Part shown: positions 25,937 to 44,157 of the stretch, piece by piece
How the letters are laid out: the number at the start of each line of letters is the position of its first letter
Position numbering within the stretch: position 1 is the stretch's first letter
Source: a virus
Taxonomy: Duplodnaviria > Caudoviricetes
Reading direction: 5' to 3' (one strand)
DNA: 50,047 nucleotides
Virus record (IMG/VR): IMGVR_UViG_3300032893_000070
Coordinates: 1 to 50,047 of that record
Position numbers and translations under genes: made by a program
The notes under the pieces: model-generated
Seen by the model: the letters and a program-made list of their open reading frames with translations, nothing else
What the model was told of the DNA's origin: nothing
The model's database searches: none

Positions 25937-26503
25937 ATGCGCGTAACCTCGATTCGCTACCAACCGATCGAGGGTGGGGGACAGGGCGGCTACTTCGCCC
26001 TTCATGTGACCCTTGGGGCCGGCGACGGCCCCGGGGTCGTTTTCTCTCCCACCGCTCTCTCCACAAAACTTCATGAGGCCTTCGAAAGCCTCTCGCTGAA
26101 ATCCCCCGTTCGTGGCGTCCTCCTGGACTGCCGCGAAGCGGTGGGCACGAACGAGGAGATGTCTTCCCTTATCGGCTCCCTCAAAGACTGGAAGTACATC
26201 GTGATCCTCTGGGTGGGGGAATCCACCCGCTACCCGTGGTTCGAGGGTTGCTTCGTCACAGCTTTCGTCACCTCGCAACATTGGCCGAACTTCAAGGCCA
26301 CCGAGATCCGCTACGTCCTTCCCACCACCGAGGACTGGATCGAGCCCGATGTCTACGAGGTGAATGCCACCACCCCATGTTTCCTTGTCGCGGGCGAGGC
26401 GAAGGGAAAGGACATCCTTTCCTTCGTCACCGACTGCAAGCGCCTGTGGGGGGTGATCTTCGAATGCCGGGGAGTGGCCGCGATCGACTTCCCTCTTCTC
26501 TAA
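25937..26503 (+). CDS. Hypothetical protein with weak QueE-like resemblance, lacking the radical SAM cysteines
   Basis: N-terminus 'MRVTSIRYQPIEGGG..G..ALHVTLG'. Confidence 0.4.
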   Translation: MRVTSIRYQPIEGGGQGGYFALHVTLGAGDGPGVVFSPTALSTKLHEAFESLSLKSPVRGVLLDCREAVGTNEEMSSLIGSLKDWKYIVILWVGESTRYPWFEGCFVTAFVTSQHWPNFKATEIRYVLPTTEDWIEPDVYEVNATTPCFLVAGEAKGKDILSFVTDCKRLWGVIFECRGVAAIDFPLL

Positions 26504-26513
26504 GGACAAGGCC

Positions 26514-26690
26514 ATGAAACAAGCCTCGGTGGAACTTCCAAGAGGTGGAAGGAAAGTGAGACTCATTCCAGGAGGAGACCCCGAACGACGTGTTCGGCAC
26601 GCGATCTATCGTCCTTCGGGTAGATATTGGTGGACAAAAGGTGGTACGTGGGAGCTTAACCCAAAAGACGAATGGGAGTATGAAGAGTGA
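26514..26690 (+). CDS. Small hypothetical protein (58 aa)
   Basis: Open frame MKQASVELP...WEYEE, GTGA-coupled to the polymerase gene. Confidence 0.5.
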   Translation: MKQASVELPRGGRKVRLIPGGDPERRVRHAIYRPSGRYWWTKGGTWELNPKDEWEYEE

Positions 26691-28534
26691 AGCTCTTCCG
26701 AATCACCCGTACGAAGTCCAAGTGCTCGGTGTGTCCTCTGGACGGATACTGCACGAAAGTGAGGGGGGAAAGTGTCACAGAGACGCCAAAGATCGCCTTC
26801 ATCGGTGAGGCACCGGGCGAAGAGGAAGACCGATTTGGGCATCCCTTCGTTGGAAGTGCGGGTAAAGAGCTTGATCGAGTGCTTGCAAAAGGTGGAATCC
26901 ACCGACACAATGCTTATCTCCTCAATCTTATCAACTGTCGCCCACCTGCGAACGACCTTGACTCTCCTGAAGGAACGGAAGCAATGGTGGCGTGTCGGAC
27001 CGGACTCGAACAAGAGCTTGGCGAACTCCACAAACTCGGTGTACGGACGCTGGTTACTTTGGGAAATGACCCGACACATGCCCTCGGCATTGAAGGAACA
27101 ATTGGAAAAGTACGTGGCTCAGTTTACGAAGTCACAGTTGCGGGTCTGAACTTCTGGGCCGTCCCGACCTTCCATCCCTCCTACATCATAAGGGGCCAGT
27201 GGTCGGAGGAACCCACCATGGTCTCCGACGTGGCGAAGGCCGTCGATATCGCCCTGAAAGGGTACAGCCCGCCGAAGGAGAACTTCCTCCTCTTCCCTAC
27301 GGTGAAAGACATCGAGATAAGGACAAAGGACCTTCTCAAACGAAAGCCTCTCCTCGGCGTGGACATCGAGACCACGAGCCTCAAACCCTGGGACGGGGAG
27401 ATTTTCGTGGTGGCACTCGCCGTGTCGGGCGAGGAGGCGTTTTCCATCCCCTTCTTTTCCCAGGGCTACAAGCCCTACTGGAAGAACGGAGACCTCCATG
27501 TGGTCCAGGATTGTCTCAAGGAGATTCTCTTCGAGTGTCCGACTATGTATCAGAACGCTCCATTCGATGTGGGCTATCTGGAGCACCACGGATACCCCGT
27601 CGGGCGAATCGCTCACGATGTTCTTCTCATACACCACGCGATCCATCCTGAGCTTCCGCATCGGCTTGCTTACATCGTTTCAATTTACGGCGCCACCCCG
27701 TACTGGAAAGACGTCAAGTTTCCTGGGCAGAAGATGGGTGAGGTGGATGATGAGAAACTCAGGACCTACAATGCCCGGGATGCCGTGGTCCTCCATCAGG
27801 TGCTCCCGCCTCTCCTTGAGGATCTTAAGGACACGGGAACCGAGCACATCTACTACAACTACTCCCTGAGGCTCATCCGCCCCATCCTTTCCATCCAGAG
27901 GAACGGAATGCTGCTCGACCGAAACCGACTTTCCAAGTGGAAGAAGGAACTCGAACATGATCTCTCAGAGACCGAACGCAGTCTACGAAGTACCGCCGAA
28001 CTACCGGTGGGGTTCAACTTCCAGTCTCCTCATCATCTCTCATGGTGGTTCTACGGAGAGGCACCCTCAAGTCTTCCGAAGTGGAAGGCGGAGCTTGCAA
28101 GCTATGAGGAAGAAGGCACGCGAAAGAAGAAGGCTTCGGCCAAGTACAAGGATCTCACAGAGCGCGTTGCGATCTTCGAGAAGATCACGCCCTTGGCCCG
28201 GTCCCGTTCCAAGACCAAGCGGACGAAGACCGGGTTTGCGAAGGATGAGAAGGCACTCCTTCTGGCAAAGCTTGCGGCGACTACTGAGATTGATCTCATC
28301 TCTCGGTTTCGCCGTCCGACGCCCGAGCACCTCGCACGGTTCGACGAGCTGAATCATCTCCGAGATTGCCTTACTCTCTTTCAGAAACGGCAAAAGCTGG
28401 CCAAACTTCTTTCTACCTATACCGACTTCGAGACCGCACCCGACGGCCGCGTCCACGCCGGGTTCAAGATCCACGGGACGGCCACGGGGCGCCTCTCATC
28501 GGGTGAGGGCCAGGAAGAGAGTGAGAGCGTATGA
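26687..28534 (+). CDS. polA: DNA polymerase A, N-terminal part: family-4 uracil-DNA glycosylase + 3'-5' exonuclease + thumb
   Basis: UDG: 'C..C', 'IGEAPG.EED..G.PFVG.AG', 'NCRPP.N', 'TFHPSY'. Exo: 'DIET', 'QNAPFD', 'YNARD'. Ends 'TATGRLSS'. Confidence 0.92.
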   Translation: MKLFRITRTKSKCSVCPLDGYCTKVRGESVTETPKIAFIGEAPGEEEDRFGHPFVGSAGKELDRVLAKGGIHRHNAYLLNLINCRPPANDLDSPEGTEAMVACRTGLEQELGELHKLGVRTLVTLGNDPTHALGIEGTIGKVRGSVYEVTVAGLNFWAVPTFHPSYIIRGQWSEEPTMVSDVAKAVDIALKGYSPPKENFLLFPTVKDIEIRTKDLLKRKPLLGVDIETTSLKPWDGEIFVVALAVSGEEAFSIPFFSQGYKPYWKNGDLHVVQDCLKEILFECPTMYQNAPFDVGYLEHHGYPVGRIAHDVLLIHHAIHPELPHRLAYIVSIYGATPYWKDVKFPGQKMGEVDDEKLRTYNARDAVVLHQVLPPLLEDLKDTGTEHIYYNYSLRLIRPILSIQRNGMLLDRNRLSKWKKELEHDLSETERSLRSTAELPVGFNFQSPHHLSWWFYGEAPSSLPKWKAELASYEEEGTRKKKASAKYKDLTERVAIFEKITPLARSRSKTKRTKTGFAKDEKALLLAKLAATTEIDLISRFRRPTPEHLARFDELNHLRDCLTLFQKRQKLAKLLSTYTDFETAPDGRVHAGFKIHGTATGRLSSGEGQEESESV

Positions 28535-28866
28535 AAGAAATCATTCTGCACAAGATCCGTTTTGGATTGTCTACTATGGTTTCTCGAAAAGTAATCGAAT
28601 CCGCAAAGATTGAAGAGTACGATGACTTGTTGTCTGGCTCTGTAGTGAGAGCTTTCAAAGGATGGCTCTATGGGCAATGGATGGACCCTATTATCATAGA
28701 GACTCCTACATCTTGGTGGCAGATGTTCAAACGAGACGTTCTTCACACGAAGTACAGGAAGCACATAACTGAATACAAGCCAAGCGTTGTCTATCCGAAG
28801 ATAGACCTCCCGAGCGAGGAACACTACATCCATATCAGCAAGCTTGAGTACGGAGACAAAAAGTGA
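28531..28866 (+). CDS. Unrelated 111-aa gene inserted within polA
   Basis: AT-richer than its flanks and in a different frame; 'PTSWWQMFK' motif; no HNH, GIY-YIG or LAGLIDADG motif. Confidence 0.75.
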   Translation: MKEIILHKIRFGLSTMVSRKVIESAKIEEYDDLLSGSVVRAFKGWLYGQWMDPIIIETPTSWWQMFKRDVLHTKYRKHITEYKPSVVYPKIDLPSEEHYIHISKLEYGDKK

Positions 28867-29735
28867 ACGCCCAGAATCTACCGGAGGACGCCCGAAAGGT
28901 TTTCGTCCCCGCCCCGGGAAATGCCTTTGTCTCAGGCGATTTCTCCAACCTTGAGCTTCGCGTCATGGCTTATGACTTCGACGACGAAGTGCTTCAGAAG
29001 ATGTTCGACGAAGGGAAAAACATTCACGATGAAAACACGAAAGCGATGTTCGGCATCACCCCGTCCCATCCCGACTGGAAGCACATCCGAAAGGCAGCGA
29101 AGATTGCGGTCTTTGGAAGATCGTATGGCGGCGGAGTGCGTGGTATCTTTGAACGTGTCAGTGCAAAAGTCCCCGAGTTCAACTTTACCATGGCAATGTT
29201 CCGAGATGCGGATAGAAAGTATTTCGACTTTCATCCAAAGCTTGCAAAGGGTTTTGAACAGGCATCGGAAGCTGCACGGAATACTCGTGTCTGTACAACT
29301 GCGACGGGACGAAAGCGCTTCTTCCTCGGCACCCCAGATGAGGTCTCGCGCGAAGGGATAAACACCCGCATCCAGTCTCCCGCTGGGGACATCGAAAACG
29401 AGTCGCTCATCGGGCTGTGGGAAGAGTGCGAGCGACACCCGGGGTGGCTCCTCCTGTGGCCGATCCATGACTCCAACACGATCGAGTGCCCGATTTCCGA
29501 CATCCCGCTTTGCGCCTCTACCATGAAGGCGATCATGGAAAAGCCTCGAAAGCTCTGGGGAAAGACCGTCGTCTTTCCTGCCGACATCAGTGTGTCTACG
29601 ACTTCCTGGGGAGAGATGAAAGCCTATGAAGAGTGGCTCAAGGACCAAAGCACCACCGGCAGCAAAACCTCACTCCCACAACGGAAGCGAAAGCCTCTCT
29701 CCCCCAAAGGCCGAGTACCTTCCCGTCGCGTATGA
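28863..29735 (+). CDS. polA: DNA polymerase A, C-terminal catalytic part (palm/fingers)
   Basis: 'NAQNLP', motif A 'DFSNLELR', motif B 'RKAAKIAVFGRSYG', 'NTRIQS' and motif C 'IHDS'. SD GGAG before the GTG start. Confidence 0.92.
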   Translation: MNAQNLPEDARKVFVPAPGNAFVSGDFSNLELRVMAYDFDDEVLQKMFDEGKNIHDENTKAMFGITPSHPDWKHIRKAAKIAVFGRSYGGGVRGIFERVSAKVPEFNFTMAMFRDADRKYFDFHPKLAKGFEQASEAARNTRVCTTATGRKRFFLGTPDEVSREGINTRIQSPAGDIENESLIGLWEECERHPGWLLLWPIHDSNTIECPISDIPLCASTMKAIMEKPRKLWGKTVVFPADISVSTTSWGEMKAYEEWLKDQSTTGSKTSLPQRKRKPLSPKGRVPSRRV

Positions 29736-42673: not shown

Positions 42674-43678
42674 CTACCGGTCCTCTTCGATCCAAAGGCT
42701 GGGGAAGTCGTACTCAAACCGAAGCGCCCCGTCTTGGATCGCCGTCTGCATGTCGCTTTCGAACTCTTTTCTCAGGGCGTACGCCCCGTCCCACTCACGA
42801 TCCCGGAGCATCCCGGTCTTCGTGGCCCACTTCACGATCATCTCGGAGAACTGATCCGGGACAAGCGGCAACTGACTCGTGGTCAATAGCGCCTCACTCA
42901 ACCCGTAGTAATGAAGCTCGAAGACCATCGAGTTGACCGGAGCCACGTCGAACTCGATCCCCCCGCCGATCCCCGACGCATACCACCCGCCCGCAGGGGT
43001 CTCAAGGTCCCAGAACATCGCCGGGTACAGGTTCGTCAAAACTTGCTTGTAGAGGGGAGTTCGCTCGTCATACCTCCGTATGTCCTTCTGCATCTGCACG
43101 TCGTAGATCCACAGAGCCGATGCAAAATCCTCCTTCGGATCGACAGGGATGAACTCATTCGTGTGGTAGCCCGTTCCCGAGTTGAGCGAACAGGCCCACC
43201 ACTTCTTATAGATGTTCACGGTGGTCCCCACCGTCGGCGTGGAAAGAAGGTTGTCCGCAAGCGTCAGGACCGGAGATGTGGAGTTGTCACTCGCGATGAC
43301 GAGGTGCTGCTCCGAGCCCTGAGAGCTTGCGTTGGCCGCGCCGATGTCCACGATCCAGTTGACGTACTTGTTGGTCATCGCGATGAGCCCCGTGATCGCC
43401 ACCTGGTTCGTTCCCGGGACCGACGCCACCGTTCCCGTCACGACCGAGTTCTGGAAGAAGCTCCGGCGCTCCAGCGATCGAAACCGTACGAATGTCCCGT
43501 CGGAAAGTTGAGTTGAGCATACCTTCCGATACGCACGACCAAGCCATTTGAGAATCTTTTGTGCCCCTGCTGTCGTGAGATCTACTGTACCGTAGGTAGC
43601 TCCATACGGATACAAGTCCGTGCTCTCTCCAAGATTTTCGTAGACCTCAGTTATCATGTCTCCGACGCTGTACGACAT
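42674..43678 (-). CDS. Head-tail adaptor / tail tubular protein A-like
   Basis: 'MITEVYENLG', 'KWLGRAYRKV' and 'PLVPDQFSEMIVKWA' adaptor pattern. Confidence 0.65.
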   Translation of the reverse strand: MSYSVGDMITEVYENLGESTDLYPYGATYGTVDLTTAGAQKILKWLGRAYRKVCSTQLSDGTFVRFRSLERRSFFQNSVVTGTVASVPGTNQVAITGLIAMTNKYVNWIVDIGAANASSQGSEQHLVIASDNSTSPVLTLADNLLSTPTVGTTVNIYKKWWACSLNSGTGYHTNEFIPVDPKEDFASALWIYDVQMQKDIRRYDERTPLYKQVLTNLYPAMFWDLETPAGGWYASGIGGGIEFDVAPVNSMVFELHYYGLSEALLTTSQLPLVPDQFSEMIVKWATKTGMLRDREWDGAYALRKEFESDMQTAIQDGALRFEYDFPSLWIEEDR

Positions 43679-44157
43679 TACAGTAGCCCTGCCATTTTGT
43701 TCGTGTACGCGAACTCTCCAAAGACTTCTATCGCTGCCTCATCATAGGCCCTTGCAGCTTCTTCTTCATCCTTGTAGGAACCCAAGCCTACGAACCTACC
43801 ATCCTTTCGATAGTAGGCCAGCCATCGGTTTCTCGACCTTCTCCAGCTTACTCCTTTGAACTTGGAAGAGCATCCCTCACGGAATCTTCTGGTATTGGCT
43901 GTGTTCTGTGATGCAGTACAAATACGGAGATTTTCCCTTCGATTATCAAGTCCGTCTCCATTGATATGGTCCACAGAATCTTTTCTTGAAGGGTTCAAGA
44001 TCAATCTGTGCATGGAAACAGAGTGGCCGTCTATCCAAGAGAAGGCGTAGAATGCCTTGTGGTTGGGGCGACAATTCCACTTGAAGTGGGACAACCATTC
44101 GAAGTCCGCATCGTCTACGAGAGCAACCTTGCCTCGGGTCAGGGGTATCTCTTTCAT
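43678..44157 (-). CDS. HNH-AP2 domain endonuclease
   Basis: 'MHRLIL...VDHINGDGLDNRRENLR' plus AP2 'SKFKGVSW...LGSY..EEEAARAYD'; AT-richer than its flanks. Confidence 0.93.
   Translation of the reverse strand: MKEIPLTRGKVALVDDADFEWLSHFKWNCRPNHKAFYAFSWIDGHSVSMHRLILNPSRKDSVDHINGDGLDNRRENLRICTASQNTANTRRFREGCSSKFKGVSWRRSRNRWLAYYRKDGRFVGLGSYKDEEEAARAYDEAAIEVFGEFAYTNKMAGLL

Follow-up and report, generated by a model that had tools for sequence, protein, structure and literature searches.

The window analysed here is the whole 50,047-base stretch of the IMG/VR virus record IMGVR_UViG_3300032893_000070, which has a CheckV completeness estimate of 100% and encodes, besides a portal protein and a large terminase subunit, a family A DNA polymerase (PolA) whose gene is cut in two. 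According to the open reading frame (ORF) calls, the polA locus consists of three ORFs on the + strand, namely PolA part 1 (26687..28534; 615 aa), an insert ORF that fills the gap (28531..28866; 111 aa), and PolA part 2 (28863..29735; 290 aa). Part 1 comprises a uracil-DNA glycosylase (UDG) of family 4, a 3'-5' exonuclease and the N-terminal polymerase domain as far as the TGRLSS half-motif, followed by a 10-residue Gly/Glu/Ser-rich tail (GEGQEESESV); half-motif, tail and TGA stop occupy 28484..28534 (+), the C-terminus reads ...TATGRLSSGEGQEESESV, and the last codon, GTA at 28529-28531, is followed by the TGA at 28532-28534. The ATG of the insert (28531-28533) overlaps this stop as ATGA, and the GTG of part 2 (28863-28865), which stands directly before NAQNLP in a product beginning (M/V)NAQNLPEDARKVF, overlaps the TGA of the insert (28864-28866) as GTGA. 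The start coordinates modulo 3 are 2, 1 and 0, so the ORFs occupy three different frames. A GGAGA Shine-Dalgarno (SD)-like run (28852..28856, +) lies 6 nt 5' of the GTG of part 2, and the insert has a lower GC content (0.42–0.47 in 150-nt windows over 28550-28849) than either flank (0.54–0.60). An earlier sequence-only reading of this DNA had described the cut gene with an ORF in its gap, the two overlaps, the three frames, the separate SD run of part 2 and the AT-richer insert, and coordinates and composition bear out all of these.

Profile matches over the polymerase domain place the enzyme in family A (PF00476; phrog_17). In part 1, Pfam detects the UDG (E = 1.7e-24), the exonuclease below the cut-off (E = 0.008), and, over residues 560-606, positions 74-124 of the 381-position DNA_pol_A profile (26.3 bits, below the cut-off of 34.3), while phrog_17 is matched over positions 476-979 (E = 1.2e-48). 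In part 2, residues 7-250 match DNA_pol_A positions 132-380 (E = 5.8e-30; 104.9 bits), and phrog_17 is covered over positions 981-1243; further, part 2 aligns to positions 300-517 of the Taq large fragment, and to Klenow chains. Part 1 therefore stops at position 124 of the Pfam profile and 979 of phrog_17, and part 2 begins at 132 and 981, respectively, so the cut costs no polymerase sequence. Motif A (DFSNLELR, in the context GDFSNLELRV) and motif B (RKAAKIAVFGRSYGG) are present in part 2. The earlier claim that motifs A, B and C are all intact thus holds for the first two, but motif C reads HDS (in IHDS; window 29466-29477, part 2 residues 202-205) where Taq has HDE. H202, D203 and S204 are invariant in all 15 sequences compared, and HDS also occurs in unsplit relatives, which makes the substitution a family-wide trait.

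Seven related split loci were gathered from three collections, giving eight with the window, and the polymerase break point is identical in 7/7. What differs is the content of the gap. In the closest relative, L002, whose amino acid identity to the window is 93% for part 1 and 90% for part 2 and whose 5' junction is the same as the window's through ATGAAA, the gap holds a 163-aa HNH_3 + AP2 endonuclease gene (HNH_3 E = 1.6e-11). L019 carries a different HNH_3 gene (149 aa; E = 5.4e-14), the two HNH proteins being alike solely around the HNH motif (E = 0.002). The 191-aa ORF in the gap of L003 has a DPPF motif and matches N6_N4_Mtase weakly (E = 0.0028, below the cut-off), and the gap of L018 spans 1691 nt with three ORFs. 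Three relatives have no gene there: in L009 the TAA of part 1 overlaps an ATT, in L010 the TAA is followed by an ATG in frame, and L020 reads TAA-c-ATG. Moreover, in a second sequencing run, window positions 28536 and 28866 lie on one contig with 485 other letters between them, that is, a different filling between exactly the window's junctions; as 485 nt is the size of an L002-type filling, whole fillings are exchanged at exactly these borders.

Since the slot is empty or differently filled in relatives, the split is independent of the window's insert. This runs counter to several proposals of the sequence-only reading. The insert did not cause the split, which predates it; the idea of a passenger gene locked in by translational coupling finds no support, given that the slot is empty in three relatives, holds other genes in four, and is filled differently in the contig of the second run; and the restoration of the frame upon its removal reflects the choice of deletion end points, as insert-less relatives are still split. 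Homing endonucleases, a class thought to be absent here, fill the slot in two relatives. An HNH endonuclease gene of 159 aa is also found elsewhere in the window (43678-44157, -), with HNH_3 above the cut-off, a phrog_99 match (E = 2.3e-37) and an AP2-like C-terminal part; its 42% identity to the HNH protein in the slot of L002 indicates that such endonucleases move around within this phage group.

Each half appears separately translatable throughout. In all eight loci, the codon just before the N of NxQNxP is a start codon of genetic code table 11 (GTG, ATA, ATG, ATT, ATG, TTG, ATA and ATG), and a G-rich SD-like run lies 4–14 nt 5' of the part 2 start. In the empty-slot loci this run is built from Gly/Glu codons of part 1's own tail. 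The purine-rich codons of the tail, just 5' of the next start codon, could therefore serve as an SD-like run, and such a role may explain why the tail is rich in Gly and acidic residues. The rarer start codons stand in overlaps of their own: in L002 (2911-2916) and L019 (3501-3506), the ATA directly before NAQN overlaps the TAA of the endonuclease gene (ATAA), and in L009 (1890-1895) the ATT overlaps the TAA of part 1, while the sole other in-frame start of part 2 in L002 is a TTG four codons downstream. Given such rare starts, part 2 may arise by termination-reinitiation in these three loci.

The break is shared well beyond the eight loci. Among 120 listed part-1 homologues, 45 stop 4–13 residues past TGRL[SA]S, with tails that consist of a G followed by D/E/G/N/S-rich stretches, whereas 72 run through the motif uninterrupted and one (P0066) is a single chain with an intein there. 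Split forms account for 39 of the 41 listed homologues at ≥60% identity, and six more are scattered among relatives at 40–46% identity. On the other side of the break, 36/52 listed part-2 homologues open with M/V/L-N-x-Q-N. A tblastn search with part 2 against deposited phages returned 375 records, all below 60% identity, with no close relative among them. A tree was built rapidly by maximum likelihood from 57 rows of part 1 (P0003-P0062, truncated at the motif, leaving out the partial P0042 and P0044 and also P0055, in which the motif pattern was not found). One clade with a Shimodaira-Hasegawa-like approximate likelihood ratio test value (SH-aLRT) of 100 contains 37 split rows and 2 unsplit ones; the tree requires no fewer than five state changes, and 0/500 label shuffles were as low. 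The split clade has diverged down to ~62% identity. Its two unsplit members, P0034 and P0041, carry the short canonical linker, and L023 confirms P0041 at the DNA level. Because they nest within the split clade, its history must include re-fusion, repeated splitting or allele exchange.

Two distant split relatives, P0060 and P0119, differ in that the canonical linker is read through to the Pro and then followed by 8-residue tails (KRHWGLVA and KQHWAIAG), the similarity of which suggests that two lineages received one and the same element at the Pro|Asn border. When relatives of P0060 were sought to identify its element, the scan yielded only the unsplit L025 and a remote match.

The sequence-only reading had placed the cut within a conserved motif. 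In fact, TGRLSS and NxQNxP are two half-motifs, and the cut falls in the loop that joins them, the length of which varies. In unsplit relatives, the canonical form of this stretch is two residues and a Pro, and in P0074, P0100, P0108 and P0112 it extends to as many as ~15 charged residues; P0079, which has an intein in its exonuclease domain, also has an unsplit but lengthened loop at the split site. As loop lengths differ this widely among unsplit relatives (e.g., P0074, P0100, P0108, and P0079), the site evidently tolerates insertions. It also draws other selfish elements, to judge from P0066, in which a mini-intein of ~155 aa lies between GRL and SS, with a Cys at its start, His-Asn and then a Ser at its end, and a match to Pfam PF14890.

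Such an intein, a few residues upstream of the break at GRL|SS, raises the question of whether the two parts are in fact restored to a single chain through RNA splicing, through ribosomes that bypass the insert from GTA to GTG, or through protein splicing, the first two of which the sequence-only reading had kept as a less likely alternative. Group I introns and inteins are frequent in phage polA, and Val codons stand on both sides of the insert. However, no ribozyme core RNA of a group I or II intron was found: Rfam gave no match in the whole window at the gathering threshold and none at E ≤ 10 in 28200-29200, and the folding of the region is unremarkable (z = +0.22; 58/100 shuffles fold as well). 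The ORF occupies the entire insert, in another frame and bounded by stops, and the halves contain no extra domain or intein pieces, as the tail has only 4–13 residues and part 2 begins at NxQN, all of which is unlike an intein or split intein. In translational bypass of the T4 gene 60 type, the take-off and landing codons match and the gap is short. Here the gap is 331 nt, the flanking codons GTA and GTG differ, and they vary among relatives. Finally, in relatives with an empty slot, a stop codon or a change of frame keeps the two parts separate all the same. We consider a restored single chain highly improbable, and take the halves to be made separately, as the sequence-only reading had preferred in proposing a two-subunit PolA; the break shared by 7/7 split DNA loci and 39/41 close protein homologues, and the start and SD-like run before NxQNxP at every locus, support this.

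An interrupted gene with a motif C that lacks the second carboxylate might also be a decaying pseudogene in a phage that relies on the host polymerase. Both halves are, however, under purifying selection. Between the window and L002, the ratio of nonsynonymous to synonymous substitution rates (dN/dS) is 0.079 in part 1 and 0.073 in part 2; in pairs more distant than L002, synonymous sites are saturated, with amino acid identity still at 67–78%. Both frames are intact in 8/8 loci, the split persists in a clade diverged to ~62% identity, and HDS is common to unsplit relatives, and hence decay is a very unlikely explanation. Selection on both halves further backs the two-subunit PolA. Using our own alignments, we also predicted the complex between residues 385-615 of part 1 and residues 1-265 of part 2. 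It scored 0.80 against 0.59 for the best of 3 controls, and the mark it passed is reached by 58/80 solved complexes and by 2/110 mismatched pairs; the runs agree in ≥81% of contacts, the partner has a predicted local distance difference test score (pLDDT) of ≥89, and the predicted interface includes both new chain ends. The prediction thus agrees with the association of the halves proposed by the sequence-only reading, though a pass of this kind may only mirror their likeness to solved single-chain PolA structures.

The insert protein itself belongs to a small family. Other contigs encode homologues that are 97% and 71% identical to it, and an exhaustive phmmer search gave 65 representatives at E ≤ 0.001, mostly of 115–150 aa. 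The alignment comprises 58 of these and the window protein (59 members), the longer or multi-stretch P0131, P0138, P0155, P0157, P0166, P0169 and P0173 being omitted. Among the aligned members, 46/59 match phrog_26218, a family of unknown function (best E = 2.6e-13). The window's own insert has no Pfam match and no PHROG match at E ≤ 0.01; across the aligned family, Pfam and PADLOC each match 0/59 members, and NCBIfam gives just two single, unrelated weak matches. Near-invariance is seen at five columns (L, P, W, K and P), the core reads P-x-x-W-W-Q-x-F-K, and the alignment shows no conserved acidic or His residues. An AlphaFold2 model made with the 59-row alignment (pLDDT 74.9; predicted template modelling score 0.49) has a small sheet and a helix; Foldseek with this model found nothing at E ≤ 0.001 in PDB (167 matches at E ≤ 10) or BFVD (333 at E ≤ 10), and a sequence profile search of PDB gave nothing significant (best E = 0.41). 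The single-sequence fold was unusable (pLDDT 39.7), and the ESM Atlas offered no usable match, its structure rows, derived from the Atlas's own poor model, all having template modelling (TM) scores below 0.5 by query. No match was found by tblastn of the insert against 50,697 phage records, and a viral-contig scan with the insert protein alone yielded 15 pattern matches, none of which was confirmed.

On the five other viral contigs with family members, these are in 5/5 cases free-standing small genes outside PolA halves, with neighbours that include a DnaB-like helicase, a PolA 3' end ~2.3 kb off, a C5 methylase and a phosphoesterase. We therefore regard the insert as a distant member of a small phage protein family without nuclease signature, and its sequence relatives and their settings lead us to read it as cargo from the early/replication gene pool rather than as part of the polymerase. 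The absence of a nuclease signature, which the sequence-only reading had noted, is upheld by the Pfam, fold and PDB profile searches, and the protein is probably not a nuclease. The opposite proposal, that the 111-aa ORF is itself mobile, being either a homing endonuclease with a novel fold or what is left of such an enzyme, with the split allele homing into unsplit polA, draws on the bona fide HNH endonucleases that fill the slot in L002 and L019, on the GC content of the insert below that of its flanks, on the unsplit alleles within the split clade, as would be expected of horizontal movement, and on the intein that the motif hosts in P0066. It is improbable in our view, as it would have to accommodate a family that has no Pfam match (0/59), gave a model without fold match at E ≤ 0.001 in PDB or BFVD, is conserved at L, P, W, K and P without acidic or His positions, and occurs elsewhere as ordinary small genes away from polA.

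Whether the insert truly resides in this polA depends on the assembly. In the sequencing run that best holds the locus, Logan contigs break exactly at the slot, and none bridges 28534 or 28863, as might be expected if the assembler had joined the insert into polA by mistake. However, this run has 95% of the sampled words of 28200-29200, its contigs derive from ~58% of the run, and co-occurring strains with different fillings would also break contigs at the slot borders. Two contig variants each stop at 28534 in this run and two start at 28850, which is the pattern that a sample with several differently filled strains would produce. The missing bridges prove nothing given the partial coverage of the run, and independent assembly support for the junctions, which the sequence-only reading had wanted from reads, is incomplete; contigs from 4 runs leave the insert uncovered but, as part of each run is covered, are uninformative. 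The junctions are codon-precise overlaps, the 5' junction is that of L002 through ATGAAA, and the slot is filled in four other independent assemblies. Misassembly is accordingly most unlikely.

Taken together, we consider it very probable that the window encodes an inherited two-gene PolA, cut in a loop, whose halves assemble in trans, and that the junction is an exchangeable cargo slot of endonuclease origin. In this model, the phage's only family A polymerase, of the UDG-exonuclease-PolA fusion type, is cut in a surface loop of variable length. Part 1 would supply the UDG, the exonuclease, the thumb and part of the palm and end in the short Gly/acidic tail; part 2 would add the fingers and the remainder of the palm, along with motifs A, B and C, would be translated separately from the start before NxQNxP behind its SD-like run, and the two chains would join non-covalently into one polymerase. 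The junction accommodates nothing, an HNH homing endonuclease, a methylase-like gene, a three-ORF cassette, or the 111-aa gene of the window, whose translation may be tied to that of the polymerase genes by the ATGA and GTGA overlaps but with which the polymerase could dispense. That the split goes back to a homing endonuclease is suggested by the HNH genes that fill the slot of two relatives; most likely, it started when a free-standing homing endonuclease inserted at the motif, and cargo would later have been lost or swapped through recombination in the conserved polymerase flanks. Of all this, the data establish that polA is split, that the split is conserved, that the content of the slot varies and that both halves are under selection, whereas assembly in trans, the origin from an endonuclease and the role of the insert as cargo are inferred.

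Several observations weigh against this model. The insert of the window shows no nuclease signature, although an endonuclease origin is proposed for the split, and the unsplit P0034 and P0041 lie inside the split clade. A Ser replaces the second carboxylate of motif C throughout the family, unsplit members included, and the family would have to be active in this form; the predicted complex may reflect no more than likeness to single-chain PolA structures that have been solved. Part 2 would have to start at a rare ATA in L002 and L019 and at an equally uncommon type of start, ATT, in L009. With no contig bridging the insert junctions, the filling of the window rests on the original assembly and on two protein homologues elsewhere, and there is no RNA run among the sequencing runs listed for the locus.

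A bolder version, which we regard as doubtful though conceivable, is that the junction is a dedicated gene-cassette site within the gene of an essential enzyme, where cargo would gain translation coupled to the replicase and recombine freely, via the conserved flanks, between phages that infect the same cell, the split allele would spread or heal horizontally, and the 111-aa family would represent a new selfish or host-takeover cargo. Horizontal spread or healing of the split allele would account for the position of unsplit alleles inside the split clade.

Split phage polymerases have already been described, for T4-type gp43A/gp43B and OM43 phages among others, and the comparisons that follow refer to the accessible passages of the papers cited. 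Our search of article texts turned up no PolA that is cut at the TGRLSS|NxQNxP loop and no slot of variable content between the halves of a PolA. The nearest published parallel is that of the T4-related Aeromonas phages 25 and 44RR, in which a PolB-type polymerase is split into gp43A and gp43B, with a seg-type homing endonuclease in the gap of one phage and only untranslated spacer DNA in that of a related one; according to the review, the two halves purify together and show activity, and the gene may have been split before the endonuclease invaded it (Petrov et al., 2010; PMC2988022). As there, a replicative phage polymerase is encoded here by two cistrons with a variable gap, but the polymerase is of family A and the cut site is another one, and the methylase-like gene, the three-ORF cassette, the filling with a small protein of unknown function and the coupling by codon overlaps do not appear in those passages on gp43A/gp43B. 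In Aeromonas phage Aeh1, nrdA-a/mobE/nrdA-b are the textbook example of 'genes in pieces' described by Friedrich et al. (2007) and Crona et al. (2011) (PMC2988022, PMC3045599). There, a free-standing homing endonuclease interrupts an essential enzyme in a region critical to its function, and the two halves reassemble. The present system shares the division of an essential enzyme at such a region, whereas the Aeh1 enzyme is a ribonucleotide reductase and the filling in the window is not a recognisable endonuclease. Regarding the hallmarks of genes in pieces, polA is contiguous in relatives (L023 is unsplit at the DNA level), both pieces are conserved and separately translatable, given the dN/dS of 0.079 and 0.073 and the start with SD-like run in 8/8 loci, and a homing endonuclease lies in the gap of L002 and L019, but not in that of the window.

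A family A polymerase in two parts is also known from the OM43 phages MEP401 and MEP402. Their PolA consists of ORF13 and ORF15 with ORF14, a small ORF of unknown function, between them (record OP830906); both phages grow in culture, most related metagenomic genomes are split too, and the authors noted the arrangement but did not analyse it, left an intron possible and, in the accessible text, describe no empty or alternative fillings (PMC10580990). The likeness lies in the cut inside the polymerase domain and the small ORF in the gap. By contrast, those phages belong to a different clade, without UDG domain, and when we checked OP830906, the cut was ~17 residues further downstream, as ORF13 retains TGRLSSSSPNLQN and ORF15 starts just before motif A. 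In the T7-like cyanophages S-TIP37 and S-SBP1, PolA is split between exonuclease and polymerase, with products predicted to associate (PMC10201439, PMC12695635); a 2023 survey reported these exonuclease|polymerase splits as the first PolA splits and also described UDG-PolA fusions (PMC10201439). A domain-boundary split with ~ten small ORFs between the parts is known from LUZ24-like phages (PMC3890496). Here, too, PolA derives from two gene products, but the cut lies inside the polymerase domain, adjoining conserved DNA-binding motif residues, and not at a domain boundary. The fractured genes of environmental phage-like DNA, in which split-intein halves flank a free-standing homing endonuclease (Dassa et al., 2009; PMC2677866), similarly show a divided gene whose parts are separated by that of an endonuclease, whereas no intein pieces are present here, where 4–13 residues follow TGRL[SA]S and part 2 opens directly at NxQN.

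These loci show that a family A polymerase can be cut within its polymerase domain, beside a conserved DNA-binding motif, and be kept so by selection clade-wide, and this natural split point may be used as a candidate for laboratory two-piece polymerases. They also provide a natural allele set at one site, including unsplit, intein-bearing, split-empty, split with endonuclease, and split with other cargo, which lays out a plausible path from a homing-endonuclease wound in an essential gene, through a permanent subunit boundary, to a slot for other genes. For annotation, some caution is warranted, as part 1 of these enzymes is often labelled solely 'uracil-DNA glycosylase'; many of the split part-1 proteins bear only this name in their source, so that the polymerase half is easily missed.

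The UDG domain (window 26687-27260) matches solved family-4 uracil-DNA glycosylases (E = 3.5e-25) and retains the N-terminal cysteines and the GEAPG and FHPS stretches, to which we presumptively assign their usual motif meanings; because these are kept, the domain may be active. At the other end of the locus, the last 110 nt of part 2 (29626-29735) overlap the start of the next gene (DUF3987, primase/helicase-like) according to the longest-ORF calls, and L002 has a matching overlap of 113 nt. Directly 5' of polA, L003 carries an MT-A70 methyltransferase gene (2076-2600; E = 2.4e-20) where the window has only a 58-aa ORF (26503-26690), and this spot appears, from these two loci, to be a second variable spot adjoining the polymerase gene.

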